This document shows, piece by piece, positions 40,143 through 62,342 of a DNA stretch of 64,000 nt. The stretch spans positions 129,566 to 193,565 of the forward strand of contig JAWAPZ010000001.1 in the NCBI GenBank assembly GCA_038894195.1, in the 5' to 3' direction. Every line of letters begins with the position of its first letter. Position 1 is the stretch's first letter. The position numbers were made by a program, and so were the translations under genes. The stretch is from Candidatus Pacearchaeota archaeon (GTDB lineage Archaea; Nanobdellota; Nanobdellia; Pacearchaeales; UBA284). The notes beneath the pieces are model-generated. The model was given only the letters and a program-made list of their open reading frames with translations, was not told the origin of the DNA and made no database searches.

Positions 40143-40143
40143 G

Positions 40144-45651: not shown

Positions 45652-48600
45652 CTATCTAAATTTTTTAAGAACCTGACCAAGTTTTCTTTCTCTTATTTCT
45701 TTGATTATTAAAAATTTTTTTCTGTAGGACAGTAGGATCACCACTGCAACTATGGCAACAATTATAACAGTCCATGCCAGGATACCCATTCTAAATGCTT
45801 CTTCCTCAAGAGGAATTTCTTCAATCTCTTTGAATTTAGAAATAATCAACGTTACTTTCCCATCTTTTATCTCTTTAATTTTTATTGTTATATCCTCTCT
45901 ACCATCCCTATCAAGATCTATGTTCTTAGCCTCACCAACTTGTATTGTTAAAGTAACCAGTGAATTTATTTCAATAGTTACTTTGTTATTGCCTATATTC
46001 AAAATTTTTATAACGTGTTCTTCACCATTGACAATAAATTGAATGGTTTCCCCCTGGCTCATGTTTATTTCTTTGCTACTTTCTGATAGCTCTCCAATGC
46101 TGTAAGGAGGAACACCCCCCCTTGTATCTTCGGTTGTTACATTTGTTTGGTTAGTTACATTGGTCACATTTTGTTGTGTCGTGCCTCCACCGCCTCTATT
46201 TCCGCCGCCATCTTCTTCCTCCTCAACAATAGATTTTCCAACAATATTTGGTTCTATGCCAGAGAAGTGTGGTATTTTAAACCAAACCATATTATGTGCC
46301 AAATCTTTATAACATAAACCAGTCAAGTTTTCATCACTTTCATTACAAAGCACAGCACTTCCATTAATGTATTCAATATAAATATCAGTTTTGTAATCTT
46401 CATAATCAGTTCCATTTAATTCTTCTATATCCTCACCTTGTTCCCAAATATATTGCCACTCTTCATCATAAAATTTAGTTATATTAACTTTCATGTCCTC
46501 AGATTCATTTATTGCAGAACTGTTATAAGGAACACCTATTATTACATAGTCATATATATTAGGACCCATGCTTCCAAAACGCCAGGCTTCTTTCATCATG
46601 TTGCCACTTGGAGTTTTATTAGCACTTTCATCAAAAATTCCATCTGGCGGCTGACTTGCCAATAAATCAACATTTACATAATGAATGGTTATGTTTGTTG
46701 TGTTCTGTCTCATTTCTAGATCATACTTACCTCCACTTATAACCCATGTAAATGGATTTGGTGGGCCTCCGCCCTGCCCAACGCCTTCTGGCAAGCATCC
46801 TAGATCACCAGGAGTCTCGTTAGGCCATGGCACAGAACAAGAACCATCATCTTTGTATTTAAAGTTTCTAAACTGAACATTTTGTATTTCCTCACCATCT
46901 GGCCTTTTTGCTTTTAATTGCTCAAGTATAAGTTCAAAAGGACTTTCTTGTAAATCTTCTACTTTGATCGTTCTTTTTATTGGAGGAAATTGCGGAGAGA
47001 ATATTCTTATATTAATACTGTCATTTAGTAAAGGAATTTTTATTATATTATTATCTCCAGAATCAGCCATCCAAGAGAAGGAAGCATCTGATCCAGAAAA
47101 TTTAGAGTAATCTACTTCTATTTCTGCATGAACATTTGTAACTCCTGTTTTGTTTCCATCTTCTAACAAACTTGTTATGTTAAATGCAAAGAGGGAAGTA
47201 TTAATTGGTTCGCCTATCTCTCCAACTTTGCTCTCGAGTGTTGCTTCTTCTCCAACCATTGGATAAAGAGTTAAATTTAATTCTGTAGGATTTTCACCAT
47301 AATTTAAAGTAACTGTTTTAAAACCACCATACCATACACCCTCTTTTTTTGCCGAAGCAAATAACAAAATATTGGCTCCATACAGTGCTGCTGGTAGTGT
47401 TATATTGTAGAAGCCAGTTGTTTTATCGAGAACATCTTCAACAGGTGGTTCATCATGCTGTCCTATGTTTTGCGGCATCATTGCACCTAAAAATACCATT
47501 TTTCCTGCTTCAAGCAAAAAGCCAACAACTGTATAATTGTCAAAGTTTTGATTCCCATTAGAACCATTTAATTTTGAAAAACCACTTAACTGAACCAAAT
47601 CTGTTGTCAAGTTTAATTCTGTAAGGTTCAAGTACAGAGCTTGATTTATTGATGTTATTGTTCTATTTTCTACTGTTCCAAGAGAAATATTATTACCATA
47701 AACCAAATTATTTAATTCTATACTAACTGGAAAAGCCGGGCCTCCTTCAGGGTAAATCATAAGAGAGTAATTTCTATCAGCAGGAATATAAACTCTATCA
47801 AAATACTTTAATTCATTAAAACTTTCTTTTATTCCATAACCTAATTTTTTGTCTTTAAACTGATATCTAAAAGCATACTCGTTCGTAAAAAAATTTATGT
47901 TTGTTAAATTTTTATCTGGCGAAGAAGAAGCAATAAAATATCTTGGATTCTCATAAAAAACATCATCAACAAAGCCATTAACAACCAAACCTTCTGTTAA
48001 GTTTACTGGTCTATCACAACTAAAATCTTCACCCATAAAAATTTTGTAAAAAACATATCTTCCTGAATTATTTCCTATTCCAAAGCCACCCCCAGGGTTG
48101 AAAAGCATCTTTCCAACATAACAGTTGGGTGTATAAAAATCTTTATGAAGAGTAAAATTAGGATAATAAATATAAACGTGGCTTTCCCCACTTCCATTTA
48201 GTGCTGAAACAAAAAATTTTCCTTCCTCTCCTGCAAATTCATTAAACGAAATGCCACCAATTTCACTGAATTCTTCTGAAGACAAATCTGTGTAGTTTCC
48301 CTCGTTGCAATCCATTGTTCCCTCACTAACATTTAAAAAACATCTTTGAACTCCTGTCAGATTAATAAAATAAAACACCCATAAACCCTCTTCTACTGGT
48401 CCGTCAGTAAACTCTTTTATGTTTGTTATATTTAAATCGCAAAAAGAATTATTATAATCTAAAGTTTCATTTAAAAAAATAAGACAATCACTCCCATTTA
48501 TATAAGTATATTGTTTTTCTCCAGAATTATTTATTATGGCTAACCCGGTTTTATAATCTTCTGGAAAAGAACCAATATTATTATATTCTATCTTGCTTTC

Positions 48601-49074
48601 ATCTTCTGTCACATACTCTTGACCAATTGCAGAAATATCAATAGTTATGGCCGGCCTTAAATAAAAATAAACTGTTCCTAAGTTGCTTATCTGCTCAGCT
48701 GGAAAATAAGGCAAGTTAGGCCCTATAAATCTTGCATAATTCTCGTTATATTTTATAAGAACTATTTTATACATGAAACTTTCACTTAGGTGTTCCCCGT
48801 CAATTGTTATGTTGAAATATCCACTTCCGTTTGATAAAGTCGAAAGAGTTGCGTTCAGAGAGGGCGGGCCAATCTCGCTTCGTTGATAAATTTCAATAGT
48901 TACATTTGTTTCATTTAAATATTCTTGCCCTCCCTCTTCGATGCCTATTGTATAGCCAGTAATATTGAATGGTGTTAATCCATTAGCAGAAACATTTTGT
49001 GACAATACTGCCAACAATACTAAACATAATAACGAAAAAAAAACTTTGTAGTTCTTTAAAATTATTTTTTTCAT
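45652..49074 (-). CDS. Large secreted cell-surface protein (1140 aa) with signal peptide, Gly/Thr/Gln stalk and C-terminal TM anchor
   Basis: N-terminal signal peptide. Dozens of N-x-S/T sequons. GGGPPNPF and RGGGGTTQQNVTNVTNQTN stalk. C-terminal TM plus basic tail. Confidence 0.55.
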   Translation of the reverse strand: MKKIILKNYKVFFSLLCLVLLAVLSQNVSANGLTPFNITGYTIGIEEGGQEYLNETNVTIEIYQRSEIGPPSLNATLSTLSNGSGYFNITIDGEHLSESFMYKIVLIKYNENYARFIGPNLPYFPAEQISNLGTVYFYLRPAITIDISAIGQEYVTEDESKIEYNNIGSFPEDYKTGLAIINNSGEKQYTYINGSDCLIFLNETLDYNNSFCDLNITNIKEFTDGPVEEGLWVFYFINLTGVQRCFLNVSEGTMDCNEGNYTDLSSEEFSEIGGISFNEFAGEEGKFFVSALNGSGESHVYIYYPNFTLHKDFYTPNCYVGKMLFNPGGGFGIGNNSGRYVFYKIFMGEDFSCDRPVNLTEGLVVNGFVDDVFYENPRYFIASSSPDKNLTNINFFTNEYAFRYQFKDKKLGYGIKESFNELKYFDRVYIPADRNYSLMIYPEGGPAFPVSIELNNLVYGNNISLGTVENRTITSINQALYLNLTELNLTTDLVQLSGFSKLNGSNGNQNFDNYTVVGFLLEAGKMVFLGAMMPQNIGQHDEPPVEDVLDKTTGFYNITLPAALYGANILLFASAKKEGVWYGGFKTVTLNYGENPTELNLTLYPMVGEEATLESKVGEIGEPINTSLFAFNITSLLEDGNKTGVTNVHAEIEVDYSKFSGSDASFSWMADSGDNNIIKIPLLNDSINIRIFSPQFPPIKRTIKVEDLQESPFELILEQLKAKRPDGEEIQNVQFRNFKYKDDGSCSVPWPNETPGDLGCLPEGVGQGGGPPNPFTWVISGGKYDLEMRQNTTNITIHYVNVDLLASQPPDGIFDESANKTPSGNMMKEAWRFGSMGPNIYDYVIIGVPYNSSAINESEDMKVNITKFYDEEWQYIWEQGEDIEELNGTDYEDYKTDIYIEYINGSAVLCNESDENLTGLCYKDLAHNMVWFKIPHFSGIEPNIVGKSIVEEEEDGGGNRGGGGTTQQNVTNVTNQTNVTTEDTRGGVPPYSIGELSESSKEINMSQGETIQFIVNGEEHVIKILNIGNNKVTIEINSLVTLTIQVGEAKNIDLDRDGREDITIKIKEIKDGKVTLIISKFKEIEEIPLEEEAFRMGILAWTVIIVAIVAVVILLSYRKKFLIIKEIRERKLGQVLKKFR

Positions 49075-49218
49075 CTTGCCTCTTTTTTAAAGTTAAGAAA
49101 AAACAGATATATAAATATTTCGTTTATAATTTTGTTCTAACTTCGGGTTTTGATACCAAAGACCATTATTTCTTAGCCATTACTTGAAAATCTATCTCTC
49201 TTAATCTTTTTTTTGTTT

Positions 49219-50892
49219 TTATTTTACTCTAGATTTTCTCCACCAGTAGTGCCTCTTTCTTGCAATTAACATCCATGCAGCAAGAAAAACTACGGCAGCA
49301 GCAAGGATAATTATGACCGCCCATCTAGCATCGAACCATTCAAAACCTATTCTGCATTTTTTTCTTTGCCCTGTTAGATTGTCTGTCTGATCAGTTAGAT
49401 TTCCAGTTAAGTTGCCTGTTACATTTGTTAAATTAGATGAAAATTCTCCTATAGCTTTCAAGAGCAAGTCGATCTTGCTGGTGCTTAGTTTTGTTAAAGT
49501 TACAGAAAAATCATTTATGTTATTCGCGTTTAAATCAAATTCTTTTGTTTCATTAAGTGTAAGAGTTGTTGTTACTGGTTTCGAGTTAATTTCTAAAGTT
49601 GTTGAATTGCTTGTTATATCTTTTACAGTAATTAAATGAGTTTCATTACCAAGAGTAAAGTTAATTTTCTCATCTTTTGCAACATTACTTACAGTTTTGT
49701 TTGTTCCTGTTATATTACCAATATTATGTATTCCTTGGGGAGGTGAATTGCATGTCTTGCTCGTAGAATTGCAACCATAAGTACAATTTTCTATTGTTAC
49801 CCATTCATCATCAATACATTTTTGTAAAGCATCGCCAGAACATCTTTTTGCATTTTCAGTACATGTTGTGCCACCACCACTTGTAGTAGATTTTATAGTT
49901 ATATCCCGAGTTTCAGAGTTATCTGAATTGCCAGCATAGTCATAACACTTAACATACCACTCATATGTTCCTTTTTCAAGCTCGATATCTGAAAATTCTT
50001 GTTGCGTGCCATTTTCTACACTAGCATCAGTATCTTCTAAATCATCGTCTATATACAGAGAACAATTCTTAATACCAAAATTATCTGTAACATTGTACTT
50101 AAAATCTATCGTTGTTGAAGTTGTATTATAATTATCTGCCGGAGATTTTAGATGCACTTCTGGTTTTGTTGTGTCTATTGTTAAAGTTCTATTGCTTGAG
50201 AAATTACAATTTCCTGCAGCATCACAAGCATAACAGTTCCATAAATATCTTGCATTTGCAGTCAAGCTATGGGTAAATGTTGTTGTATTGTTTGTTCCTG
50301 AAACATTACTTGAGTTTTTTTCTTGCCAGCCAGACCAATTGCCATAAAGAGTTATGTTACCTAAATTGTAATTGTCCTGAGCTGTGCAATTAAATGTAAC
50401 ACTTGTACTCGAAAGATTAGCATAAGCAACTGGAGCATTCAATGTCACACTTGGTGCTGTCGTGTCATTTACTTCAAGGTCTAATATAATGTCCCAAGAT
50501 CCTGTTGCATTAGTGATAGTTATTGTTAAATTATAATTACCTGGCTCAGAAACTGTAACATTAAACCAAAAGTATTCTATAGAGTTATTCATAACAAGAC
50601 CTTCTTTTTCCCAGCTTAAAACACTGGATGTGTTAGAAAAATTAGCTTCAGCAACACTGCTACCATTAGAATCTGTAATGAATATAAAACCAGAAGGTAA
50701 AGTTATATTAACTTGGGTTATATTTGATTCTTCTGTCTCATAACTATTGTTTATTGAAATGTTAATTAAAGATGAAACATCTTCTTTAATTGAATTTTCT
50801 TGTAGCTGAGCAGAATAATCGGCAAGAACAAAAAAAGGTAGGATTGCTATAAGAAGCATAACAAAAAAAATTACTATCAAGACTTTCTTCAT
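49219..50892 (-). CDS. Secreted surface protein (557 aa) with the shared NCxxCDxxGNC domain and C-terminal TM anchor
   Basis: Signal peptide. VTFNCTAQDN...ITLYGNWSGW...YLWNCYACDAAGNCNFSSNRTLTID domain. Cys-rich CxxxC segment. C-terminal TM plus RKRHYWWRKSRVK. Confidence 0.55.
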   Translation of the reverse strand: MKKVLIVIFFVMLLIAILPFFVLADYSAQLQENSIKEDVSSLINISINNSYETEESNITQVNITLPSGFIFITDSNGSSVAEANFSNTSSVLSWEKEGLVMNNSIEYFWFNVTVSEPGNYNLTITITNATGSWDIILDLEVNDTTAPSVTLNAPVAYANLSSTSVTFNCTAQDNYNLGNITLYGNWSGWQEKNSSNVSGTNNTTTFTHSLTANARYLWNCYACDAAGNCNFSSNRTLTIDTTKPEVHLKSPADNYNTTSTTIDFKYNVTDNFGIKNCSLYIDDDLEDTDASVENGTQQEFSDIELEKGTYEWYVKCYDYAGNSDNSETRDITIKSTTSGGGTTCTENAKRCSGDALQKCIDDEWVTIENCTYGCNSTSKTCNSPPQGIHNIGNITGTNKTVSNVAKDEKINFTLGNETHLITVKDITSNSTTLEINSKPVTTTLTLNETKEFDLNANNINDFSVTLTKLSTSKIDLLLKAIGEFSSNLTNVTGNLTGNLTDQTDNLTGQRKKCRIGFEWFDARWAVIIILAAAVVFLAAWMLIARKRHYWWRKSRVK

Positions 50893-50954
50893 CTTCCCTC
50901 TTTATTTTTTCTTTGAAAAAATAAGTTAAATGATATTAAAAATCTTTCGTTTTT

Positions 50955-53900
50955 CTATTTTCTCTTTTTCTTTTTGAAAACTGTAAAAAAGATTAAAACA
51001 ATTAAAATTATTGCAACTAAAATTAGTAAAATGTAAAGAAGAGGGAGAGAAATTTTTCTAACAGACTCTTCCCCTAATTTTTCTTCTTTCTTCTCTTCTG
51101 TTTTATTTCCTTCTTTCTTCTCTTCTCTTGTTATTGGTTGCTGTGGCATTGTTACATTTGTTATGTTTGTTACATTTTGTTGTGTTGTTCCTCCACCTCT
51201 ACCGCCACCGCTGCTAGGAGAGTAATACATAGGAGCGAGAATCGCATGATGGGTAATGCTAACGTTTCCAGAATAAACATAATTATGTGCTGTGTTGACT
51301 CCGCTGCTTGCAAGCTCGTTCCAAGAGCCATTATAAGCAAACATTTTCAAGCTAGCTTCATTACTAATTTCCCTTTCATCATAGCTAACATTAAGATAGA
51401 TCCATGAATTTCCTGATGCTGCAATTACATTAACAAATTTACCAATGTTTTCATAGTTCCTTGGATCCGAGGCTGGTGCTATTGTCTTATTTAAAGCAAT
51501 ATTTTCTGACGTAAAACTTACTGTTTCTTCTAAGCCGATATCAAAATAAGAAACTATATTATTTGTAGAGTTTAGTTGAGAAACAAATGCAAAAAGTTGA
51601 TTATTTTTTGACTCGTCATTAATTAAAATGTTGTTATCAGAATCTGATAATATAGTCCCAACCTGATTATTGTTGGTTTTTGATGAAAGAATATAAGTGT
51701 AATGACTTCCTGTCAAAAAGATTCCAAAGCTATTTGAGTTGGCAGTTGTATTAAAGATAACATTTGTTGAAGAGTAAACAACTTCAACACCAAGATAGCC
51801 AGAATCAAAAGAAGAATTCGTTATGTTGTTGTGGTTGGAATCAAAAATAGCCAAACCAAAATAATTACCGGAAGAATTGATTAGATCAAAAGTTGTATTT
51901 TCAGTTGCTAAAACAAGCAAGCCATTGTTGTCAATACTCTCAGAGCCAGCAATGGTTATGTTCTTAAGTGAAGAATTATCGGCATTGCATAAAATTAATT
52001 CTGAGAGAGTTTCATTTTCTAAGGTTACGCTAGAATTATAGAATTTTATTTCTCTGTCGCCAGAACCGGTGTTATTCTCTATAAGATTATTGCAATTTTC
52101 CTCTAAAGAAGCATAACCCATCAAATCAAACAAGTTGTTTTCTCTTATCATATTATTAATAATAACATTGTTTTGACCGTCTTCAAGATAAAGGCCATAA
52201 AGGTTATATTCAAAAATGCTATCATTAATATTATTGCCATTAGAATCTTCTAAATAAATTCCATAATAATTTCCAGAAGAATTAACCAAACTAAAATTAG
52301 AATAATCTGTATAATAGACAAATATGCCATTGTTTTGCAAGTAATCAGAACCGATAACAGTTACATTATAAATTGAAGAGCTATCTGCGTTACATAAAAT
52401 AAGTTCAGAAAAAATTTCGTCGCTTAAGTTAACACTTTCGTTATAGAAAGCAATAGCTCTTCCATCAGAACCAATAACATCTTCAATAAAGATATGATCA
52501 CAACCAGAATCTGATAAGCTATTAAACCCTACATCTTGCTGTAAGTTATCTTGAACATTACAATTGCTTATGTTTATACTTAGCTCGCCAGTGTCGGGAA
52601 GATCGTAAACGTAAATGCCTGTACTAAAATTAGAAATTGTCAAATTAAAAATAGTTATATTTCCACTTTGAGAAGTGTTTATTCCGTAACCTGTGCTATT
52701 GCCAGTAATGCTATAGTTAGCTCCGTCAATCACTACGTTATCTGAACCAATTGTGAAGCAAGTTCCATTGCTCTGTAAGTTTCCATTTAAAGTGCATGAT
52801 TCATAAATTCTATCGCCACATGTATAAATCATGCCGCTTTCTGCAACACAGCCATAAGGAATTGTTAAAGTTCTATTGCTTGAAGCAAAAACACAATTTC
52901 CAGCAGCATCACATGCCTGACAATTCCAAACATAGGTTCCTGAATCAAGAATTTTTTCAAAAATTACTGGTGTTGCATTTTCTGGCGAGCTATTGGTTTC
53001 ATTAGCGTGCCAGCCACCAGACCAATTGCCGTAAAGAGTTACATTTGTCAAATTTACATTATCAGAAGCAGAACAATTAAATGTAATATTTCTTAAGTTT
53101 GAAGTAAAGTTATCTTCTGGTTCGTTCAAACTAACTTCTGGCTCTCCATAATCTAAAGTAAAGGTCTTCGTTGCAGATGTATTAACTATACCAAAATCTT
53201 CTTCCCAACACTGAATTTTCCAGTTGTAAATTCCTTTTTCACTAAGAATGTATGTTATTATAGTAAGTGTATTATTTTCTGCAATAGTTGTATTAACAAC
53301 AGTATTGTTTATTATTAAATCGCAATTAGCGTTTGTTGCATTTTTATTTATCGTTGTAAAATTAAAAGTTATTAAAGAATCATTTGTTATATAATTATCC
53401 TCTGGAAAGTTTAGTAAGATGCTCGGCTTAAAGTTCGGCGCATTGACTGTATGCGGATAATTAATTTCATCAGTTACATTACATTCATTAAAACCCAACT
53501 TGAAGTAACCATTTTCTCCCCAACCTGTGCCCCAGCTGTTTTTTATTATCCAGTAACTTGTTTCATCATTTCCAGTATCATTATAGCCTACAATTAGTAC
53601 AGCGTGATTGGCATAATCATCATCGGTGCATCTTTCGATACGGCCATCACCAACTAGGTCATCTGCATTAATTGCTGTAGCCAAGGGCCCATAATCAATA
53701 AGTAATTGCTCTACTTGTTTATTTGTTAACCCACTTGGCCATAACCACGTGTAATCATTTATTTTCCATAATCTCTGTGAGTAACTTGAGCATCTATTTG
53801 AGCATATTGTATCAGAGCAGTTTCCACTAGTGTTATAAGTGCAACTTAAAATCGAGCCACAATAATAAAAGCAATCACAACCTGAACCATCAACGTAATT

Positions 53901-54677
53901 AAAACAATTTTCGTCACTTATACCATCTGTCATGATAAAATCAAGAGCGACATCAATCCAGCCGCCACAACAGTTCTCATACAAGCCATAATAAGGATCT
54001 GTATGACAGTTAGAAACAAGATACTCTTCTGCAATATTTGAATTTAATCTTGAATTGTTCTGATTAATTTCATACTTGGCTTCGACTGAAGCAACCGCAG
54101 CAAAGGCCCAGCAAGAGCCACAAGATCCTTGATCCTTAACAGAAGTAAGCCATCCATTGCTTGTATCAAAAAATGTAAAATTATATTTACTATACCTTGT
54201 TCCATTCGGAGGATTGCGCCAATCCCAGTAAGGAAAATCAGAAGCATTATAAGTTTTAATTGGACTATACCCTTGGCTTGAAATTCTTCTTTGTGGTCTT
54301 TCCTTTTCCTTGCCACATGTCATTTTTTCTTTTAAATTCATTAACTTAGAGACAGGGATTTCCTCTATTTTTCCAGATTCATTATCAGGAACAATACAGA
54401 AAGCCATGCCATTCTTACTTTTAAGCTCATAGCCCTGCTTAGAACAGTAAGAAAATTCCTGGCCGCATTCACCTCTAAAAAAAGACCATTCATCACATTT
54501 TTCATTGTTTGGCATAACACAAATACCTTTTTGGCCTAAAGAAGTTTCAACAACCTTATACTTATAACCTAATTCGCTACAATAAACTGCTGCAGGATTC
54601 GGTAGAGCAGAAACATAAGCAATGTTTGCTAGAAAGATAACTATCAAAATTAAAAACAAAATTTTTTTCATTTTCAT
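50955..54677 (-). CDS. Membrane-anchored papain-like (C1A) cysteine protease fused to DUF333 repeats, parallel beta-helix repeats and the shared NCxxCDxxGNC domain (1240 aa)
   Basis: C1 catalytic motifs QGSCGSCWAF (Cys), NHAVLIVGY (His) and IKNSWGTGWGENGYFKL (Asn). N-terminal YCSELGYKY...CDEWSFFRGECG is DUF333-like. The beta-helix repeats are SGNYYGIYLEDSNGNNINDS...LYGLYLEDGQNNVI. Also has WNCQACDAAGNC, a GGGRGGGTTQQNVTNITN stalk and a C-terminal TM. Confidence 0.8.
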   Translation of the reverse strand: MKMKKILFLILIVIFLANIAYVSALPNPAAVYCSELGYKYKVVETSLGQKGICVMPNNEKCDEWSFFRGECGQEFSYCSKQGYELKSKNGMAFCIVPDNESGKIEEIPVSKLMNLKEKMTCGKEKERPQRRISSQGYSPIKTYNASDFPYWDWRNPPNGTRYSKYNFTFFDTSNGWLTSVKDQGSCGSCWAFAAVASVEAKYEINQNNSRLNSNIAEEYLVSNCHTDPYYGLYENCCGGWIDVALDFIMTDGISDENCFNYVDGSGCDCFYYCGSILSCTYNTSGNCSDTICSNRCSSYSQRLWKINDYTWLWPSGLTNKQVEQLLIDYGPLATAINADDLVGDGRIERCTDDDYANHAVLIVGYNDTGNDETSYWIIKNSWGTGWGENGYFKLGFNECNVTDEINYPHTVNAPNFKPSILLNFPEDNYITNDSLITFNFTTINKNATNANCDLIINNTVVNTTIAENNTLTIITYILSEKGIYNWKIQCWEEDFGIVNTSATKTFTLDYGEPEVSLNEPEDNFTSNLRNITFNCSASDNVNLTNVTLYGNWSGGWHANETNSSPENATPVIFEKILDSGTYVWNCQACDAAGNCVFASSNRTLTIPYGCVAESGMIYTCGDRIYESCTLNGNLQSNGTCFTIGSDNVVIDGANYSITGNSTGYGINTSQSGNITIFNLTISNFSTGIYVYDLPDTGELSINISNCNVQDNLQQDVGFNSLSDSGCDHIFIEDVIGSDGRAIAFYNESVNLSDEIFSELILCNADSSSIYNVTVIGSDYLQNNGIFVYYTDYSNFSLVNSSGNYYGIYLEDSNGNNINDSIFEYNLYGLYLEDGQNNVIINNMIRENNLFDLMGYASLEENCNNLIENNTGSGDREIKFYNSSVTLENETLSELILCNADNSSLKNITIAGSESIDNNGLLVLATENTTFDLINSSGNYFGLAIFDSNHNNITNSSFDSGYLGVEVVYSSTNVIFNTTANSNSFGIFLTGSHYTYILSSKTNNNQVGTILSDSDNNILINDESKNNQLFAFVSQLNSTNNIVSYFDIGLEETVSFTSENIALNKTIAPASDPRNYENIGKFVNVIAASGNSWIYLNVSYDEREISNEASLKMFAYNGSWNELASSGVNTAHNYVYSGNVSITHHAILAPMYYSPSSGGGRGGGTTQQNVTNITNVTMPQQPITREEKKEGNKTEEKKEEKLGEESVRKISLPLLYILLILVAIILIVLIFFTVFKKKKRK

Positions 54678-54698
54678 CTCTTTTTTATTAAAAAATGA

Positions 54699-54983
54699 TT
54701 AAGGTTTTTTAAATTTTTCTCCAGGTTTACATTCTCCTTGATAGTATGACCATTCCTCACACTCACTACCATCAGGAAAGATGCATACACCGTATTGGCC
54801 TTGCTCATTTTCTCTTATTTCAAGAGTACCATTATGTTCTATGCAATAGACGCTCGCTGGATTTGGTATTGACTGGTTTGATTGATTTTTTTCTTTGTCC
54901 TTGCTTTCAGGAAATTTGATTATCGTAACTAAAACAAGGGCAAAAATCAGTAATATGCACACAAAAACAAAAATTTTTTTCAT
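54699..54983 (-). CDS. DUF333 ('putative hemolysin') domain protein, 94 aa
   Basis: NPASVYCIEHNGTLEIRENEQGQYGVCIFPDGSECEEWSYYQGEC matches the DUF333 consensus. N-terminal TM or signal segment. Confidence 0.6.
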   Translation of the reverse strand: MKKIFVFVCILLIFALVLVTIIKFPESKDKEKNQSNQSIPNPASVYCIEHNGTLEIRENEQGQYGVCIFPDGSECEEWSYYQGECKPGEKFKKP

Positions 54984-55021
54984 TTGATCTTTTTTTAATT
55001 AATTGTCTTATTTTTACTTTT

Positions 55022-56647
55022 TTAGTATCTCAGTTCTCTGTTTTTAATTATCTTTAGTTTATATAGTATTGCGACAAGAATTACAAGAAGAGTTACTATG
55101 ATCAAGAAAAAATCCCCGGCTTTTAATGCACCAAGTTTTCTTTGAGGATATGCTATTTTAAAGAACGCACTTGCACTTGCAACAGTTCCATTATAAGTTG
55201 CTTTAGCATAAAGAACGTAACCTCCTAGTTGTGTTTGCAAAGGAATTTTAAAAGTTTTAATTTTACTGAGATGTGTCTCTATCGCCACCGTCTCTCTCTC
55301 ATAAACGATTTTGTCAATTTCATGATTTTTTATAGTATATTCTAAAAGCACATCCACTGGTTTTCCTGTTTCTCCGATTTTATGCAAAGTCACTACAGCC
55401 ATTAAATCCCCTCCTGGGAAAATTTCCAGATATTTTTCTGGAATCTCTAATTCGACATCAAGTAAAGGTCCTTTAGATTCTATGTCTACTGCAACTAAAA
55501 CTTCTTTTGTTATTGTACTGCTTTTGAATATAATTTTTCCCATGTATAACTGTGGAACCGTATCTTGTCTTGCTATAAAATCTAAAGTTAGTGTTTTAGT
55601 TTCCCCGGCATTCAAAGAAAAAGTTGTTTCACTAATTTTTACAAAATCTTGAATTTTTGTTATTTCTACTTCTATGTTCAGATTTTTTTTACCAGTATTT
55701 TTAATCTGCAAAAATTCCGTCTTTGTTTCTCCCTGTTTTAGAGAAACGTGTATGTTTTCTCTATCTAGTATAAAATTCTCTTCTAATGTTACACCACCTC
55801 CTCCTCCTTTTTCTTTTTCTTCTTCTGTTTCTCCAACAGTGTAGTTTGTAAAACCAGTTACATTTACTTGAAATATGCCATCAACATAGGATTGGCCAGA
55901 ACAAATATCGGCAGAACAAGGAATGCCGTTTCTTAGAACTCTTGGATTTTTAAAGTTAAGATTGTAAAACCATAAAGTCGCCTTCTTATTCAAGTTAGGC
56001 AACCCGGTTTCATTAACAAAAATAGAAGAATTCGCAATTACCACATTGTAATCTAGTGTTGTTATCCTATCATTTGGGTCTACATCTGCTGTAACATTTA
56101 CATTTTCAAGCCATAAAATCTTACCATAATCTGTATTTTCAAGAGTCATGCCAGAAAGATTTTCTAATTCTTCATCACTCAGCAAATCAAAATCTGTTGA
56201 GTTGCCTCTTTTACCTTGACGAAAATTTTCGTAAATAACAATGATCTTTGAATTATTTGCAAAAAATCTAACACTTTTTGAACTTAGAGTTCCTTGAGTA
56301 TCATTAGCATATAAATAAAGGATATGATTTCCTTCTGAGGTGTTGAAATATGTCTGGCCACTTGACGAATTTCCTAAACTTATATTGGTTTCGTTGTCTA
56401 TATTATACCAGACAAGAGATATACCATCAGCATCATAAACACTATAGTTCAATAAAATGTTCTGACTTCTATAAGTTCTATTTTCTTTTGGCGAAAATAT
56501 TGAAATTGTCGGTGCAATACTTACAACTGTAATTGATGCATTTATCTGATTTGAAGTAGCTTCACCAGAAATATAAATTCCATTTGTTAAAGGAAAAACT
56601 AGAATAAATAAAAAAATTATGAAAATAATGAACACTCTTTTTTTCAT
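55022..56647 (-). CDS. Secreted surface protein (541 aa) with beta-sandwich repeats, Gly-rich hinge and C-terminal TM anchor
   Basis: Signal peptide. Many sequons. EEEKEKGGGGGV linker. C-terminal TM plus KLKIIKNRELRY. Confidence 0.5.
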   Translation of the reverse strand: MKKRVFIIFIIFLFILVFPLTNGIYISGEATSNQINASITVVSIAPTISIFSPKENRTYRSQNILLNYSVYDADGISLVWYNIDNETNISLGNSSSGQTYFNTSEGNHILYLYANDTQGTLSSKSVRFFANNSKIIVIYENFRQGKRGNSTDFDLLSDEELENLSGMTLENTDYGKILWLENVNVTADVDPNDRITTLDYNVVIANSSIFVNETGLPNLNKKATLWFYNLNFKNPRVLRNGIPCSADICSGQSYVDGIFQVNVTGFTNYTVGETEEEKEKGGGGGVTLEENFILDRENIHVSLKQGETKTEFLQIKNTGKKNLNIEVEITKIQDFVKISETTFSLNAGETKTLTLDFIARQDTVPQLYMGKIIFKSSTITKEVLVAVDIESKGPLLDVELEIPEKYLEIFPGGDLMAVVTLHKIGETGKPVDVLLEYTIKNHEIDKIVYERETVAIETHLSKIKTFKIPLQTQLGGYVLYAKATYNGTVASASAFFKIAYPQRKLGALKAGDFFLIIVTLLVILVAILYKLKIIKNRELRY

Positions 56648-56731
56648 AAAAAAATTATATAAATAAAGTATTTAAAATTAGTGATTATAAATAAAACAGA
56701 AAAATAGAGGTGTCCAAAAAGGTAATTAAAA

Positions 56732-57337
56732 TTACTTTTTCTTGCCCATCTCTCTTTCTTCTTTCTTTTCCTCTCTTCTAGTCTCTTTTTTCTTTCTTGT
56801 TAGAAGCCAGATTATAAAAATGATTACAATGATTACTATAGTTATCACCACAATTAGCAATGTAGGGAATTTCTTTTCTTGAACAGGAGCTGGTTGAGTT
56901 GGAGTTTTAATTATAACAGGAAAGTATTTTTCAATGCTTGTACCTACTTCTACCCCTCCTGTTCTGCTTGGCTTGATTGTTGTAAAAGCAACCCCTATTG
57001 TATACTCTTTGCCTTCAGGCGCGCTAGTTGGAATTATTATTCTTATATTGACTGTAACATTTTTAACTCCAAGAGGTACATAATACTCTTTATTTGGATC
57101 TATTATCTCGGCTATTTCTGTTCCATTTATTATTTCGGCCCTGACTCTTAGGTTTTCATTTCCAACCATGTTCTGCAGTTGTAGAGTAACTGTTGCAATT
57201 TCTCCTGGAGCCAATTCAAGAGGCCTTTCTTTCCAGTAAGGTGACGTAATTCCAAAAGCACTTACATTTGATAAAGTAAGGATCACTATAGCTACTAACA
57301 TTCCGAAAGTCAAGTTTATTCTTACTAAGTTTTTCAT
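56732..57337 (-). CDS. Small surface protein (201 aa), signal peptide, C-terminal TM, Lys/Glu-rich tail
   Basis: MKNLVRINLTFGMLVAIVILTLSNVSA signal. C-terminal TM plus KKKETRREEKKEEREMGKKK. Confidence 0.45.
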   Translation of the reverse strand: MKNLVRINLTFGMLVAIVILTLSNVSAFGITSPYWKERPLELAPGEIATVTLQLQNMVGNENLRVRAEIINGTEIAEIIDPNKEYYVPLGVKNVTVNIRIIIPTSAPEGKEYTIGVAFTTIKPSRTGGVEVGTSIEKYFPVIIKTPTQPAPVQEKKFPTLLIVVITIVIIVIIFIIWLLTRKKKETRREEKKEEREMGKKK

Positions 57338-57416
57338 TTCATTTACCTCTTTTGCTTATTGTCTTTAATTATTTTTAATTTTTATATTTTTTGTTTTTAA
57401 TTCCTTTTTCAGTTGT

Positions 57417-60167
57417 TTATGATAATATTTTAATTATCCAAGAGCCCAGGGTACTTGTCGAATAAGTTTGTGAAATTAAACTGCTTGGAGCTTCTCTTAA
57501 ACAGTAATACAATTGTTCTTGACCTTGGCCAGCTGAATTGTTTCCAGCAGGCAAGCTAGCTCCTGCAATGCCAACAAAAGTATTGTTCTGTAGTGCAGTA
57601 CCATCACACTCTATTGGTGGCGAGCCACCTGTTTCTATGTCTACTGTAAAGTTTTCTGCTGGTATGTAATAAGCATTGTTTGTTTCACCAATAAGATCTA
57701 AACCCTTGACCTGAATTGTGCTTATGTCGGCATTTCCAGTATTGTTAAGCAGAGAAGGATCGTTGTTTGATGTTACATTTTCAGAACCAGGAGCTGTTGT
57801 AGGGAAACTTATAAGTACTGGCGAAAGAACAAATGCTGCTGTTTCTAGAAGTAAAAAACTCTCATTATAAGGTTGAGAAATCAAGCCATCTGTATCATTT
57901 GCTGTTGCATTTACTTGCCATGTTCCTGCTTTATCCCAATACCAGATGCCTATTGTACAAGAATAATTCGCTTGAGTTGCATTTATCGCATTGACAAAAA
58001 CACAGCTTGAATTGTATCTTAAATCCTCGCCTTCAAGATAGAAAGTTGCATTCACTGTATCTATAGTTTCATAACCTTGAGCATCTGAAACATTAACATA
58101 GAATGTAACATATGTGACACTTGCTTCTGTTATACTTTGATCTGGAATAGCTGATATATCGTCGATTGTTGGTGCTTGAGCTGCTACTATCACACTAACT
58201 TCCAAAGGTCCAAGAATTTCTTCACCAAGATTGCCAGCAGAATCATTTGCATATGTATAATTAATATAAAAAGTTCCAGGAGTTGAGCCAACATTTATTT
58301 CAACACCATAATTATTATCTCCTGGAGCGCCATCACAAGATGTTTCCCCATTATCAGACATTTCTGTTACAGCTGAATAATTTAATTCAGTTCCATTTGG
58401 GTATGTTATATAAACCCAGACTTTATTTATGCCAGAACCCTCTCCAACTTCCTGAACATTTGCATTAACACAGACAAATTCATTTGTATAAACACTACTA
58501 GCATTAACTTGTGTTCCTGAAACATCTGGCGGTTGTGTATCAACTGTAAAACTATAATTGCTTGCAGAAAAATTGCAATTACCTGACGTATCACAAGAGT
58601 AACAATTGTAAACATATTTGCCGTCACTTAAAGTATTTTGCCACTGACTTGAGTTGCTTGTGCCCGAAATGCTTGATGAATTTTTTGCACCCCAACCAGA
58701 CCAATCTCCATATAAAGTAATATTTTTTAACTGAACAGCATCTTCTGCAGAGCAATTAAAAGTTACCAAACTACCTTGAAATGAGTTATTTTGAGGCAAA
58801 TTCAGTGTTACTTCAGGAGCTGTCTTATCAGAAACAAATTTTTCAAAAACAAACTGAAATTGCTCATAAGTTGCTACAGAAGTTAATGCAACAGCATTTG
58901 CTACCTCAACAGCAGTGCAGGTTGTTGTAGTGCAAGAAGTTATTCCTTTATAAACTGCAAGATTCGCTGTCTGATCGCGCATCAAAGCAAAGATTCTTGA
59001 GCTATTGTCTGGATCATAATCCATATTAATCCAAGAACCATCTGTTCCGATGTCTGTTGTTCCCCATGGCGCAGCTATTAAACTAGACCAAGTACCAGCA
59101 GCACAATTTGCAGCAGAAGTGCATTGATAACCAGAAAAATAGTCTACATTGCTATCATCAACTCCAACAAGAAAACCACCCGTAGCTTGAACAGGAGCAA
59201 TATCCATATGCCTCCAAGTAGTTACTGTTTCTATACTTGTATCAACACCTTTCACAGTTCCCCATGAATTGCCATTCCATTCTTGACAAAACAAGTCATT
59301 GGCTGTATAAACTTCAACGCACATCATTATTCTGTCTGTTCCAGGATAATTAACTGTTCTAATCCAATAATTGGTTGCTGAACCAGTAGAACCAGCCGTT
59401 CCAGGAGTGCCCCAAGACCCCGTGCTGCTATAAGTTATATACTCCGGGGTTGCTAAAGCACCATCGACCCATACAATCAAAGCATCTCCAGATGCTTCAT
59501 AAGCAACATCAAATGTCTGAACTGTAGCGACTTCAGAATTAGTTTCAAGTTCTTTAACAGAAAGAAAAGAAGTGCCGTTCCAAGGAATTGCAACTATTCT
59601 TCTATCAGCGTCCATTGCAACAAGCATCATTTGATTACTATCACTTCTTGCCTCAAGTCTTATCCAATTTACTAAGCCAGAACCGCCTGTTGAAATTGTT
59701 TGCTCTGCACTCCAGCTCTGGCCGTTCCAAATTTTGTAGCCAATATAACCAGCTGTTCCATTTCCATATGCTACCATAACTTTACCGCTCAAAGACATAA
59801 TGCCTATATCAAAACAACGATAAGCATTTGTTGAAGCACTTGCTGTCATCTCTACTGGCAAACTCCAACCGCTTCCATTCCATATTTGTACATCAATATC
59901 AGAATCTGCATCAAGTGTCGCAAGAACTGTTTCATTTCTTGCAGGATTTGCTTTTAGTTCAAGCCATCTAATTGTATTGCCAACTGGATTCGCGCTAGCC
60001 AAAGAACTCCAAGCGCTACCGTTCCATATCATGTACTTTGGTGTAGCGCTTTGATTTTGTGTAACCAACAAACCTCTTGTTGCTGAAACGTTTTTTATTG
60101 ATAAAAAGAAGATAAATACGAACAAAAGTAATACAACCGATAATTTTTTATTAAATGTTTTTTTCAT
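57417..60167 (-). CDS. Large secreted surface protein (916 aa) with the shared NCxxCDxxGNC domain
   Basis: Signal peptide. VTFNCSAEDAVQLKNITLYGDWSGW...YNCYSCDTSGNCNFSASN. Many sequons. 4-nt gap to the upstream gene suggests co-transcription. Confidence 0.55.
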   Translation of the reverse strand: MKKTFNKKLSVVLLLFVFIFFLSIKNVSATRGLLVTQNQSATPKYMIWNGSAWSSLASANPVGNTIRWLELKANPARNETVLATLDADSDIDVQIWNGSGWSLPVEMTASASTNAYRCFDIGIMSLSGKVMVAYGNGTAGYIGYKIWNGQSWSAEQTISTGGSGLVNWIRLEARSDSNQMMLVAMDADRRIVAIPWNGTSFLSVKELETNSEVATVQTFDVAYEASGDALIVWVDGALATPEYITYSSTGSWGTPGTAGSTGSATNYWIRTVNYPGTDRIMMCVEVYTANDLFCQEWNGNSWGTVKGVDTSIETVTTWRHMDIAPVQATGGFLVGVDDSNVDYFSGYQCTSAANCAAGTWSSLIAAPWGTTDIGTDGSWINMDYDPDNSSRIFALMRDQTANLAVYKGITSCTTTTCTAVEVANAVALTSVATYEQFQFVFEKFVSDKTAPEVTLNLPQNNSFQGSLVTFNCSAEDAVQLKNITLYGDWSGWGAKNSSSISGTSNSSQWQNTLSDGKYVYNCYSCDTSGNCNFSASNYSFTVDTQPPDVSGTQVNASSVYTNEFVCVNANVQEVGEGSGINKVWVYITYPNGTELNYSAVTEMSDNGETSCDGAPGDNNYGVEINVGSTPGTFYINYTYANDSAGNLGEEILGPLEVSVIVAAQAPTIDDISAIPDQSITEASVTYVTFYVNVSDAQGYETIDTVNATFYLEGEDLRYNSSCVFVNAINATQANYSCTIGIWYWDKAGTWQVNATANDTDGLISQPYNESFLLLETAAFVLSPVLISFPTTAPGSENVTSNNDPSLLNNTGNADISTIQVKGLDLIGETNNAYYIPAENFTVDIETGGSPPIECDGTALQNNTFVGIAGASLPAGNNSAGQGQEQLYYCLREAPSSLISQTYSTSTLGSWIIKILS

Positions 60168-60170
60168 TTT

Positions 60171-62342
60171 TTATGAAATTTTTTCTAAAGAAAAATTAGT
60201 TATGAGCACATAACCAAAATAATCTTCAATGCCTTCAGATCTAAAGCCGATAAGTGCTTTGGTAGAATTTTTTGGCAACTCTAATTCGATAGTAATTTTT
60301 TTCCATAGACCCGAGTCAGAAACACTGAATTTTCTTTTTTCTTTTTGTGTATGGTCAGCCTCCCATACTTCATCATTATTCCAGACTAAAGGAGGATATG
60401 TTTCTATTTCTTTATTGCTGCTATCTAAAATGTCTATTATGATAGAAAACCCGTTATCTTTATTTCCTATAATCTGCAGCTCGGGTCTTACATAAAAACT
60501 TATTCTGTATTTGCCTTCTTCAACATCAAAAACAGAACTTATGCCAATGTTGTCTTTTGTTTCTGCAACATGAGAAAGATTGTAAAGCAAAGCGTTTCCG
60601 CATTCGACTTGAACAAGATTTGCTGTATTTTTTACTTTTTTTGAATGCTCATCGTCTTTCAGCTCAAGGCTATTTTTTTCTTTCAAAAACCATTTACCAG
60701 GAAGCTTTATATCTTCTTTTCTTGGCTCATCAAAAAGACAAGTAAAATTAATTTCAACTACACTAATAAAAATTTCATTACTCTCGACAGTAAAATTTCC
60801 GTCGCTTGCATAAAATTTTAAAGTTTTATTACCCACAAAATCTTTTTCAGGAACTAAAGTAACATAAGAATCTTTTATGATCACACTTATGTTTTCTGGA
60901 TGTGTTGAGCTAAAAGTTAAAAAATCGTTGTCAGGATCTTTAAAATAGGCAGCAAGATCTAAATTTATGTTCGAGTTTTTCAAAATCGTGATGTTTGGAA
61001 TTGGATTTAACAAAATCGGAGGATTGTTTGTAACATTTACTACTTTTATTGTAAATTGATTGCCCTCTACACTTAAATTACCGTCAGAAGCAGAAACAAT
61101 CAACTTCTCATAGCCTACATCATAAGCACTTACAAAAAAAATCTCTTCGTTAATAGTGATGTTTGTTAAATTTTCGTTTTCAAGAACTTTGTAGTAAAAA
61201 ATTAAAGCATCGCCATCTGGATCTGAAAAGTATTCTGAAAGATTTAGCATGAAAGAAGAATTAACCAAAATTTCTTGATCTGGAATTTCTTTCTTAAGTT
61301 TTGGTGCTCGATTCTTGCTTTCTATTGGCAAGATTGTATAAGTTATTGAATCAAGATGCAAGAAAGCATCTTGAATTTCTATACGCAGAATATAACTTTT
61401 GTCAGTTAAATTTAAATCTCTAAGATCACAGGTTTCAATACATACTTGAGAAAAATCAATTTCGTAAGTTATTATTTCTTCTGGCAAAGATTCAACTGGT
61501 TCTTCCTCTTCTTCTGTAATATTTTCTTCTGTTAAATTCTCCTCAGAAACTTTTTCTTCTGGTTTTTCTTGTGTTGGTTCATTCACCTCTGGTTCACTTT
61601 GTTCTGGTTCTGAAGGTGTTTCAGAAGAATGTTCTACTAGTTCTGGCGATGATGGAGTTTCTTCAGTAATTTCACTTCCTTCACCTTCAACAGCCAAGCC
61701 TGTTATTAAATTTCGTGATGCTTGAGAAGATTTAGTTTCAAGTTTTGAGCTGTCAAGAATTAATTTATCTTGAAAATAAATTTTTACAGAACCCTGGTCA
61801 ATCAAAGTCAATTTTCCTGAAACTTTTAAACCGGTTAACTGACCATAATTTTCAGGATGCCATTCATATTCTTGTGAAGCATTAAACTCAAGAAGCAAGT
61901 TATCTTGATAGGTTTTTTCTTGCGGTGCTATAATAAAACCAGTTAATTTCGCTATTTCTGTTCTGAAAAAAAATAGCACGAAAAAAATAAAAAAGAGCAA
62001 GAAAAAAATAGATGCCAGCCTAAAACTCTTTCTAACTTTCTTTTTCCTTTTTTCTTGTTCTTCTCTTCTTAAAGCATAAATTTCTTCAGTCAAGACTTGA
62101 ATTTCTTTTTTTAATTTTTCTATCTCCTTGTCTATTTTTTTAAGAAAAGTTTCAAGAGTTTCATCAATAAATGAGAGTCTTTTTCTGTATTCATAATAAC
62201 TTATCACTCCAAGCTTGTATTTTTGTTCAGTAGCCTGAAAAAAATTAACAACTTTTTTCTTTTTAAGTTCAAGTTTTTCTATCTCTTTTTCTGTATCTAT
62301 CAACCTACGAAGCTTATTTCTGATTTGTCCTTCTAATTTCAT
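60171..62342 (-). CDS. Type-II membrane protein: cytoplasmic coiled-coil, TM, acidic Glu/Pro linker, cadherin-like (DPDGD) repeats
   Basis: N-terminal heptad-rich 100 aa. TM IFFLLFFIFFVLFFF. EPEQSEPEVNEPTQEKPEE linker. DPDGDALIFYY and DPDNDFLTFSS cadherin-like motifs. Confidence 0.5.
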   Translation of the reverse strand: MKLEGQIRNKLRRLIDTEKEIEKLELKKKKVVNFFQATEQKYKLGVISYYEYRKRLSFIDETLETFLKKIDKEIEKLKKEIQVLTEEIYALRREEQEKRKKKVRKSFRLASIFFLLFFIFFVLFFFRTEIAKLTGFIIAPQEKTYQDNLLLEFNASQEYEWHPENYGQLTGLKVSGKLTLIDQGSVKIYFQDKLILDSSKLETKSSQASRNLITGLAVEGEGSEITEETPSSPELVEHSSETPSEPEQSEPEVNEPTQEKPEEKVSEENLTEENITEEEEEPVESLPEEIITYEIDFSQVCIETCDLRDLNLTDKSYILRIEIQDAFLHLDSITYTILPIESKNRAPKLKKEIPDQEILVNSSFMLNLSEYFSDPDGDALIFYYKVLENENLTNITINEEIFFVSAYDVGYEKLIVSASDGNLSVEGNQFTIKVVNVTNNPPILLNPIPNITILKNSNINLDLAAYFKDPDNDFLTFSSTHPENISVIIKDSYVTLVPEKDFVGNKTLKFYASDGNFTVESNEIFISVVEINFTCLFDEPRKEDIKLPGKWFLKEKNSLELKDDEHSKKVKNTANLVQVECGNALLYNLSHVAETKDNIGISSVFDVEEGKYRISFYVRPELQIIGNKDNGFSIIIDILDSSNKEIETYPPLVWNNDEVWEADHTQKEKRKFSVSDSGLWKKITIELELPKNSTKALIGFRSEGIEDYFGYVLITNFSLEKIS

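Follow-up and report, generated by a model that had tools for sequence, protein, structure and literature searches.

A predicted surface-anchored papain-family peptidase with a DUF333 unit at the propeptide position in a Pacearchaeota genome

In a stretch of 64,000 nucleotides from a Candidatus Pacearchaeota archaeon (contig JAWAPZ010000001.1, positions 129,566 to 193,565; hereafter the window), we confirmed an open reading frame at 50955–54677 on the minus strand that encodes a protein of 1,240 amino acids (aa). From its sequence, this protein is predicted to be an exported, C-terminally membrane-anchored C1A (papain-family) peptidase fused to DUF333 and to a right-handed beta-helix. We judge the chances to be slightly better than even that it is a surface-anchored C1A endopeptidase engaged in extracellular proteolysis, with its DUF333 unit as the pro-region and the product of a neighbouring gene as a partner in trans. 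New in this comparison are the fixed position of DUF333 in the absence of an I29 domain, the existence of split-gene versions and a gene pair conserved in Pacearchaeota, and it is because of these observations that we favour a pro-region and partner role for DUF333. The protein itself is a further member of a widespread and already annotated family, the DUF333–C1A peptidases, for which we found no experimentally characterized member in the searchable literature. It is deposited at NCBI as MEM4703047.1 ('C1 family peptidase', from a Ca. Pacearchaeota metagenome-assembled genome (MAG)), with the start placed at Met3 (window position 54671).

Results

A complete papain-type active site

The catalytic domain matched the Pfam profile Peptidase_C1 (PF00112) over residues 173–408, covering columns 8–219 of 220, with an E value of 5.4e-37 and a score of 128.4 bits (cutoff 20.7); the match to the C1B-type profile PF03051 was weak, at 24.7 bits. 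We located the catalytic motifs QGSCGSCWAF at residues 183–192, NHAVLIVGY at 357–365 and IKNSWGTGWGENGYF at 378–392. A phmmer search of the PDB returned rhodesain, cruzain and cathepsins L, K and S, with E values as low as 6.5e-25. The segments DQGSCGSCWAF, NHAVLIVGY and IIKNSWG fall on the motifs of these enzymes that hold the catalytic Gln/Cys, His and Asn, and the four residues line up column for column with those of rhodesain and cruzain. The full catalytic triad proposed in a first-pass annotation of this DNA was confirmed as Cys189, His358 and Asn380, to which the alignments added Gln183. Across a family alignment of 80 sequences, Gln183 and Cys189 are invariant, and His358 and Asn380 are at least 90% conserved.

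Structure prediction gave the same picture. The AlphaFold2 (AF2) model of residues 1–420 had a predicted local distance difference test score (pLDDT) of 85.2 and a predicted template modelling score (pTM) of 0.85, and Foldseek matched it to cathepsins K, S and L, cruzain and procathepsins at E values of about 1e-14, with target-normalized template modelling scores (TM-scores) of 0.72–0.81 for the mature enzymes. The two-lobed papain fold is present in this predicted structure. Because the Pfam match, the PDB alignment, the family conservation and the AF2 and Foldseek results all agree, the identity of the domain as a protease is solid, and the earlier assignment to the C1A papain family holds in both the profile search and the structural model, with the catalytic residues retained and the fold that of a peptidase. 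A transglutaminase or other non-peptidase papain-like fold was excluded by the PF00112 score of 128 bits and by the nearest PDB relatives, which are cathepsins and cruzain; a pseudo-enzyme was ruled out by the conservation of every catalytic residue.

An insert with eight cysteines (residues 258–296) interrupts the catalytic domain and amounts to a net insertion of about 27 residues relative to cruzain. It is kept family-wide, and about 24 aa of it are missing in the closest Pacearchaeota orthologues, from the loci that we call L087 and L090. We take the insert to lie in the same general region as the occluding loop of cathepsin B.

A DUF333 unit at the position of the I29 propeptide

The protein carries a DUF333 unit that immediately precedes the catalytic domain, at the place occupied by I29 in eukaryotic relatives. 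Residues 25–70 matched PF03891 with an E value of 1.4e-18 and 67.3 bits (cutoff 25), and in the 80-sequence alignment Cys53, Cys61 and Cys71 of this domain are invariant and Cys33 is at least 90% conserved. An I29 pro-region is usual in the cathepsin L-like group and is not shared by all C1A members; Pfam detected no I29 propeptide (PF08246) in the target or in any of its 120 best homologues.

Two DUF333 modules had been annotated initially. One full copy, at residues 25–71, stands, and the second proved to be a truncated copy with two cysteines. In hhalign, residues 73–97 aligned with the first ~25 columns of DUF333, that is, its first two-thirds (probability 91%, E value 1e-6). Pfam called one stretch only and not this second copy, for which the family hidden Markov model gave an independent E value of 4.8. 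The cysteines of the half-module and the residues of the helix that follows it, including Leu112 and Leu115, are invariant or at least 90% conserved in the same alignment.

In the AF2 model, the DUF333 unit had a pLDDT of 86–98, and the linker at residues 121–140, with a pLDDT of 55, was the sole disordered part. We read the high pLDDT of the unit, together with the pTM of the whole chain, as a sign that the unit may be packed in a fixed and confidently predicted way on the catalytic domain. The linker (residues 121–144) is not conserved in the family consensus and is 46% identical to that of the L087 orthologue. Among about 40 fused loci, the order DUF333, half-module, C1 was kept throughout, and L040 was the only locus without a half-module match. 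The C-terminal modules of these fused homologues vary freely and include TSP3, dockerin, CARDB, fn3, PKD and beta-helix domains. A sequence search of the PDB found no solved structure of DUF333.

Conserved gene pairs and split systems

A stand-alone DUF333 gene beside the protease gene had been noted at the outset, and we confirmed it as the 94-aa protein encoded at 54699–54983, which matched PF03891 with an E value of 4.7e-22 and 78.4 bits (cutoff 25) and which NCBI lists as a 'DUF333 domain-containing protein' (MEM4703048.1). The gene shares the strand of the protease gene and lies upstream of it, separated by a 21-nt spacer (54678–54698), and its product is 31.5% identical to the N-terminal region of the protease, both being PF03891 matches. 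The pair of DUF333 and protease genes is kept in four other Pacearchaeota MAGs (L003, L087, L089 and L090). In L087 and L090, the order extends to three genes, with the small DUF333 gene followed by the large DUF333–C1 gene and then by a gene for an immunoglobulin-like (Ig-like) protein of ~553 aa (~552–553 aa in these two loci) that is equivalent to the gene at 49219–50892; the genes in this conserved order are 53–75% identical to those of the target. The sequences of L003 and L089 stop within the protease gene, and only the pair is visible there. The upstream flank in the relatives (Sec61beta, ParA, HisRS) is unlike that in the window.

The same two components were also found in separate genes. 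Four loci from three phyla, namely L042 and L048, both from Altiarchaeota, L046 from an archaeon, and L049 from Moraniibacteria, a CPR bacterium, encode a C1 protease without DUF333, and the gene immediately 3' of it (Table 1) encodes a signal peptide, DUF333, the half-module, the helix, Cys-rich repeats and a C-terminal transmembrane anchor. The Cys-rich repeats (CGDGxC...NCPxDCPSG or CGDGxC...CPxDC) had no Pfam match. In L043 (Archaeoglobus), a free gene for DUF333 and half-module lies just upstream of the C1 gene, and in L044 (Methanosarcinales) a single lipoprotein-like DUF333 gene lies just upstream of a DUF333-less C1 gene. Fusion in many genomes and adjacency in others are classic evidence for a partnership, and it is because of this pattern that DUF333 and the C1 protease are predicted to work together physically.

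An exhaustive search with residues 25–120 recovered 3,448 DUF333 representatives at 50% identity, 993 of them with E values of 1e-10 or lower. Three of these proteins (P0310, P0312 and P0314; 570–620 aa) consist of 5–7 tandem DUF333 domains only, a layout that recalls multi-headed protease inhibitors. The known inhibitor families chagasin I42, cystatin I25 and I29 had no match in the target, its neighbour or the relatives of the neighbour; only PF03891 appeared in these proteins, even at E values up to 1. Two DUF333 proteins, P0245 and P0276, are labelled 'inhibitor of cysteine peptidase' at JGI, which was likewise unsupported, as both contain DUF333 only and have no I42 domain at that same threshold.

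Distribution across archaea and bacteria

Both PF00112 and PF03891 are present in every one of the 120 best matches to residues 1–416. When a single genome per species was scanned, at least 558 relatives came up, and the fused DUF333–C1 core is present in about 35 of the best 80 loci. Among archaea, the fused core occurs in Nanoarchaeota, Micrarchaeota, Aenigmarchaeota, Nanohaloarchaeota, Methanosarcinales, Halobacteriota and Archaeoglobus, and among bacteria it occurs in Anaerolineae, Dehalococcoidales, Gemmatimonadota, Zixibacteria, Acidobacteriota, Eisenbacteria, Bacteroidales and Paceibacterota. Five more proteins of 1000–1900 aa that we selected from the exhaustive search also have DUF333–C1 followed by long C-terminal extensions, including beta-helix or Big_7 domains. 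Kordis and Turk (2023) found papain-family members in every major lineage of archaea, DPANN included, and set aside the multidomain prokaryotic forms, which were not analysed there (PMC10380794). Because of that survey (PMC10380794) and the abundance of fused homologues, the premise that C1A peptidases are uncommon in archaea, from which the first-pass annotation started, is outdated.

In a neighbour-joining tree built without bootstrap, the target fell among Pacearchaeota, within a clade made up mainly of DPANN; the majority of bacterial sequences were placed elsewhere, with some mixing between the domains. A recent acquisition from bacteria is unsupported by this placement, which is indicative, as the tree carries no support values.

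The L087 orthologue is 72% identical to the target and has the same architecture; the L090 orthologue is 53% identical and has a shortened beta-helix. Divergence between the target and L087 (L087:6261–9995) is uneven along the protein. In 40-aa windows, identity is mostly 77–97% across the scaffold (residues 413–1156), with dips to 52–70% and a synonymous divergence (dS) of 0.19–0.40. It is 55–82% in the DUF333 unit (residues 25–120; dS 0.96), and in the catalytic domain (residues 201–412; dS 1.04–1.19) it is 27–55% over residues 201–360 (window 53598–54077) and 82–90% over residues 361–412. The ratio of nonsynonymous to synonymous divergence (dN/dS) is below 0.4 in all folded segments, and reaches 0.72 in the signal peptide and 0.67 in the linker. 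Positive selection was rejected for the divergent central part of the catalytic domain, given a dN/dS of 0.35 there and the heterogeneous dS. Because dS differs by segment and dN/dS is low in the folded parts, the alignment suggests that the protease head and the scaffold may have separate histories, brought about by recombination rather than by positive selection.

A beta-helical, sequon-rich scaffold

The first-pass annotation had placed an NCxxCD module after the beta-helix. We found the motif (WNCQACDAAGNC, residues 584–595) in the second Ig-like domain, between the protease and the beta-helix. This Ig-like module with NCxxCD is common to three genes of the window, the target, 49219–50892 (51% identity) and 57417–60167 (44% identity). 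The proposed C-terminal stalk and transmembrane anchor were both borne out, the helix being followed directly by the KKKKRK tail.

For the beta-helix, profile matches over residues 760–892 exceeded the cutoffs of PF05048 NosD (31.2 bits against 23.6) and PF13229 (26.2 against 25.9), and the NCBIfam parallel-beta-helix repeat TIGR03804 scored 28.9 bits against 19.45. All of the 62 homologues of the region carry PF13229 and nearly all carry PF05048; they are mostly from DPANN, and some are named 'cell surface protein'. The AF2 model of the region was confident over residues ~627–697 and 777–1047, with regular short strands at a pLDDT of 87–99 over residues ~788–1037. Thus, profiles, homologues and model agree with the right-handed beta-helix that had been claimed. 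A Foldseek search with the beta-helix returned generic matches only, to alginate C-5 epimerases, polysaccharide lyases and phage tailspikes (E values of 5e-5 to 1e-3, TM-scores of 0.2–0.3, 10–13% identity), and such matches to a model would indicate the fold class, not the function. No catalytic polysaccharide lyase (PL) or glycoside hydrolase (GH) family in Pfam or NCBIfam matched the target, and a sequence search of the PDB found no solved relative of its C-terminal 766 aa. The beta-helix also holds an internal duplication of a block of ~90 aa (residues ~732–955, window ~51813–52484), as seen in GSDGRAIAFYNESVNLSDEIFSELILCNADSSSIYNVTVIGSDYLQNNG and GSGDREIKFYNSSVTLENETLSELILCNADNSSLKNITIAGSESIDNNG. 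Because the L090 orthologue lacks approximately residues 801–1000 of the target beta-helix, the length of the stalk varies among relatives.

The domain at residues 1051–1156 is 85% identical in the L087 orthologue, and most of it (residues ~1064–1160) has low confidence in the AF2 model. The stalk that follows shares the motif GGGxxGGGTTQQNVT with the product of the gene at 45652–49074. N-x-S/T sequons number 59 in the target against 25 expected from composition (z = 8.3). The excess is located in the Ig-like and beta-helix scaffold; the DUF333 unit shows none, and neither do four cytoplasmic proteins encoded in the window. As sequons in the target reach about twice their expectation, their density implies that this stalk-like part of the protein would be densely N-glycosylated.

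Gene neighbourhood in the window

The genes of the window are of archaeal type, as judged by FttA/aCPSF1, GatE, an archaeal PheRS and a proteasome alpha subunit. The target is one of eight consecutive genes on the minus strand (45652–62342) that encode large exported proteins. A transmembrane helix with a basic tail ends five of these eight genes and also the gene at 23528–25087 elsewhere in the window.

On the plus strand at 41491–43755, a gene for a protein of 754 aa had a weak S-layer-like match (PF05124 S_layer_C, E value 2.7e-5). With 0.7 sequons per 100 aa, its product is poor in these sites, in contrast to the surface proteins encoded nearby. From these sequence features, it is a possible S-layer protein and candidate substrate of the protease. 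Six open reading frames of 166–311 aa within 38203–45367 on the same strand, four in a row upstream and two just downstream of the S-layer-like gene, had no Pfam match at E values of 0.001 or lower.

Table 1. Positions of the parts of the DUF333–C1A peptidase, of adjacent genes and of the DUF333 genes of the split systems (positions are those of the window unless a locus is named)
Feature	Positions	Strand	Residues or length	Basis
Whole gene, DUF333–C1A peptidase	50955..54677	-	1240 aa	
Signal peptide (MKMKK, hydrophobic core, VSA/LP)	54606..54677	-	1-24	Read from the sequence by eye
Full DUF333 (Cys 33, 53, 61, 71)	54465..54605	-	25-71	Pfam PF03891, family alignment, AF2 pLDDT 88-98
Truncated second DUF333 (73-97; Cys78, Cys94), then conserved strand and helix (104-119; consensus ELMxLxEK)	54318..54461	-	73-97, 104-119	hhalign, fused homologues, pLDDT 86-95
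Basic variable linker	54246..54317	-	121-144	Low pLDDT, no family consensus
C1A catalytic domain	53442..54245	-	145-412	PF00112, PDB phmmer, Foldseek
Gln183, oxyanion-hole Gln (papain Gln19)	54129..54131	-	183	Alignment to rhodesain/cruzain and family
Cys189, catalytic nucleophile	54111..54113	-	189	Alignment to rhodesain/cruzain and family
His358, catalytic His	53604..53606	-	358	Alignment to rhodesain/cruzain and family
Asn380, catalytic Asn (then Ser381, Trp382)	53538..53540	-	380	Alignment to rhodesain/cruzain and family
Cys-rich insert (eight Cys) within catalytic domain	53790..53906	-	258-296	PDB and family alignments
Ig-like domain 1	53166..53441	-	413-504	BLASTP similarity to the Ig-like (Big_7/Big_13) region of gene 49219-50892
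Ig-like domain 2 with NCxxCD motif	52857..53165	-	505-607	Similarity to neighbour genes
Right-handed parallel beta-helix (predicted)	51528..52856	-	~608-1050	PF05048/PF13229, TIGR03804, homologues, AF2, Foldseek
C-terminal domain, fold not recognised	51210..51527	-	1051-1156 (~105 aa)	Conservation in L087 orthologue
Gly/Thr/Asn/Lys/Glu-rich stalk (GGGRGGGTTQQNVT; GGGRGGGTTQQNVTNITNVT)	51048..51209	-	1157-1210	Sequence
Transmembrane helix and KKKKRK cytoplasmic tail	50958..51047	-	1211-1234, 1235-1240	Sequence
Stand-alone exported DUF333 protein, MEM4703048.1	54699..54983	-	94 aa	Pfam PF03891
Ig-like (Big_7) surface protein with C-terminal transmembrane anchor, downstream of protease	49219..50892	-	557 aa	Pfam
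Split-system DUF333 gene	L042:989-1870			
Split-system DUF333 gene	L046:3750-4802			
Split-system DUF333 gene	L048:3777-4622			
Split-system DUF333 gene	L049:3717-4790			

Discussion

In the arrangement that we favour, the single C-terminal transmembrane helix would hold the enzyme at the outer face of the membrane, and the two Ig-like domains and the beta-helix would form a glycosylated rod of ~800 residues that lifts the catalytic head off the membrane. DUF333, its truncated copy and the helix may form a pro-region packed against the catalytic domain, serving as a folding chaperone, an inhibitor or both, and the enzyme could be activated by cleavage within the flexible basic linker. The exported 94-aa neighbour may act in trans as a lineage-conserved guard inhibitor or chaperone, much like Spi, a propeptide analogue whose gene adjoins speB. 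The most plausible job for such an enzyme would be the scavenging of peptides and amino acids, the trimming of surface proteins, its own or those of a host, or both. The suggestion in the first-pass annotation that the DUF333 proteins are cognate inhibitors or chaperones gains from the invariant position of the unit, the split genes in four loci and the pair in four Pacearchaeota MAGs, and loses from the nearest relatives of the neighbour, which are free-standing and in at least one case have no protease nearby. More tentative is the general proposal that DUF333 constitutes a new family of C1A pro-domains or inhibitors, acting in cis in the fusions and in trans both as the anchored partner of the split systems and as small exported proteins; we consider this possible, with the chances tilted against it.

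Several observations weigh against a role for DUF333 as pro-region and partner. No functional literature on DUF333, PF03891 or COG3042, and no experiment on any DUF333 protein, was found in the searchable literature (one apparent match concerned DUF3335 and was discarded). DUF333 occurs mostly in small free-standing proteins or in arrays of 5–7 copies, and at most fused loci no additional DUF333 gene lies within 3 kb. The 155 detected relatives of the neighbour are all small and free-standing, with one or two DUF333 domains and no protease domain; because of this, the neighbour is not a recent copy of the N terminus of the protease, with which it shares 31.5% identity. Moreover, P0276, a related free DUF333 protein, has no protease in its gene context. 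Because these nearest relatives are protease-free and P0276 stands apart from any protease gene, DUF333 must, as its distribution in sequence data indicates, also have a protease-independent function, such as binding a common ligand. Finally, a T6 tract and an A/T-rich box in the spacer between the paired genes (tcattttttaataaaaaagag) could form a weak archaeal terminator or promoter element, which makes co-transcription of the pair uncertain; a scan for bacterial-type promoters and terminators scored at chance level, with a model that is not applicable to archaea.

The abundance of DUF333 as small proteins and multi-copy arrays without a protease, the 155 protease-free relatives of the neighbour and the isolated close relative all speak for the explanation that we rank second, after the pro-region. 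According to it, DUF333 would be a targeting or ligand-binding module for an envelope glycan, a lipid or a metal, the protease would be constitutively active, and the neighbour would be an unrelated small surface or binding protein whose gene is kept close by synteny alone. We regard this as somewhat unlikely. Targeting modules in the family are C-terminal and interchangeable, whereas the DUF333 unit is fixed in position, copy number and order; the AF2 model, as we read it, places the unit rigidly on the protease; and the split systems of three phyla encode it directly after the C1 gene.

Other explanations concern what the enzyme acts on. It could be a self-directed maturation protease for the S-layer or other surface proteins of its own cell, as Clostridioides difficile Cwp84, a surface C1A protease, is for the S-layer protein SlpA (PMC4089489, PMC4414356). 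The gene does lie within a run of eight genes for exported surface proteins and ~7 kb from the S-layer-like gene, for which the PF05124 match is weak; however, Pfam detected neither the lectin-like nor the CWB2 domain of Cwp84, and the fused homologues occupy very different gene neighbourhoods, so that we hold this proposal to be unlikely. The view taken in the first-pass annotation, that the protein is a weapon against a host cell whose beta-helix binds carbohydrate of the host envelope and whose protease degrades the host S-layer, seems to us more doubtful still. The source organism belongs to Pacearchaeota, within DPANN, many members of which are host-dependent; a long stalk would present the head beyond the surface of its own cell; and the fold class of the beta-helix is common to proteins that bind or cleave polysaccharides. 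Nevertheless, the same DUF333–C1 core is found in Chloroflexi, Gemmatimonadota, Acidobacteriota and Methanosarcinales, where the carriers belong to free-living lineages, the beta-helix match is generic by its TM-score, and no host or substrate is pointed to by the data. Least probable of all, and in our opinion very unlikely, is that the beta-helix is itself an enzyme (a polysaccharide lyase, epimerase or glycosidase), which would make the protein a bifunctional degrader of glycans and proteins. Its best structural matches are indeed alginate C-5 epimerases, polysaccharide lyases and tailspike depolymerases, but their scores are weak (E values of ~5e-5 at best), no PL or GH family matched in Pfam or NCBIfam, in L090 the orthologue is missing a large part of the beta-helix, as would be expected of a spacer, and the homologues are annotated just as generic beta-helix repeat or cell-surface proteins.

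A single gene adds little here; the value lies in a widespread papain-like subfamily in which a disulfide-rich DUF333 tandem replaces I29. The fused, split and adjacent arrangements yield a concrete and cheaply testable hypothesis for a 47-residue domain with ~3,400 cluster representatives (50% identity). If DUF333 were an inhibitor or pro-domain, many of the thousands of orphan DUF333 proteins annotated as 'putative hemolysin', including the arrays of 5–7 copies, would be cysteine-protease inhibitors. Confirmation would define a new family of protease inhibitors or prodomains and provide a handle on how cell-surface proteolysis is controlled in genome-reduced archaea.

Comparison with known systems

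The catalytic machinery and fold are those of the zymogens of cathepsins L and K and of cruzain, and as in these an N-terminal domain is followed by a flexible junction. By contrast with I29 zymogens, the target has no detectable I29, its N-terminal unit is a disulfide-rich DUF333 tandem, and its catalytic domain carries the ~27-residue net Cys-rich insertion. As with the free I29-like inhibitors, a free-standing homologue of the N-terminal domain of the target is encoded in the genome.

Cwp84 of C. difficile is likewise a surface-displayed C1A protease with a non-canonical propeptide (PMC4089489); the two proteins have in common a cathepsin-L-like catalytic domain, a propeptide that is not I29, extra domains and an anchoring module. 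Cwp84 differs in having a short extended propeptide, a lectin-like beta-sandwich and CWB2 wall-binding repeats, whereas the target has DUF333 modules, Ig-like domains, a beta-helix and a transmembrane anchor.

Protease genes with adjacent inhibitor genes are known from SpeB and Spi and from the staphopains and staphostatins (PMC2873492). Similar to these pairs and to Bfp–Bfi of Bacteroides, a small gene lies on the same strand beside the protease gene, here 21 nt away, and similar to Spi its product is homologous to the N-terminal region of the protease itself (31.5% identity). Unlike the SpeB–Spi and staphopain pairs, in which the proteases belong to families C10 and C47, the target is a C1A enzyme, the inhibitor fold would be different, the small gene lies upstream and its product is exported.

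The beta-helix shares its PF05048 and PF13229 repeats with the NosD or pectate-lyase-like surface proteins of DPANN archaea, and differs from them in lying inside a longer chain, with a protease head on one side and a membrane anchor on the other. The closest counterparts are the prokaryotic DUF333–C1A peptidases, variously annotated as 'C1 family peptidase', 'DUF333 domain-containing protein' or 'putative hemolysin/C1A family cysteine protease'. They have an identical core, in which a signal peptide is followed by DUF333, the half-module with its helix, a linker and a C1 domain with the Cys-rich insert, and only the C-terminal set of the target, comprising two Ig-like domains, a duplicated beta-helix, a stalk and a transmembrane anchor, is specific to its lineage.

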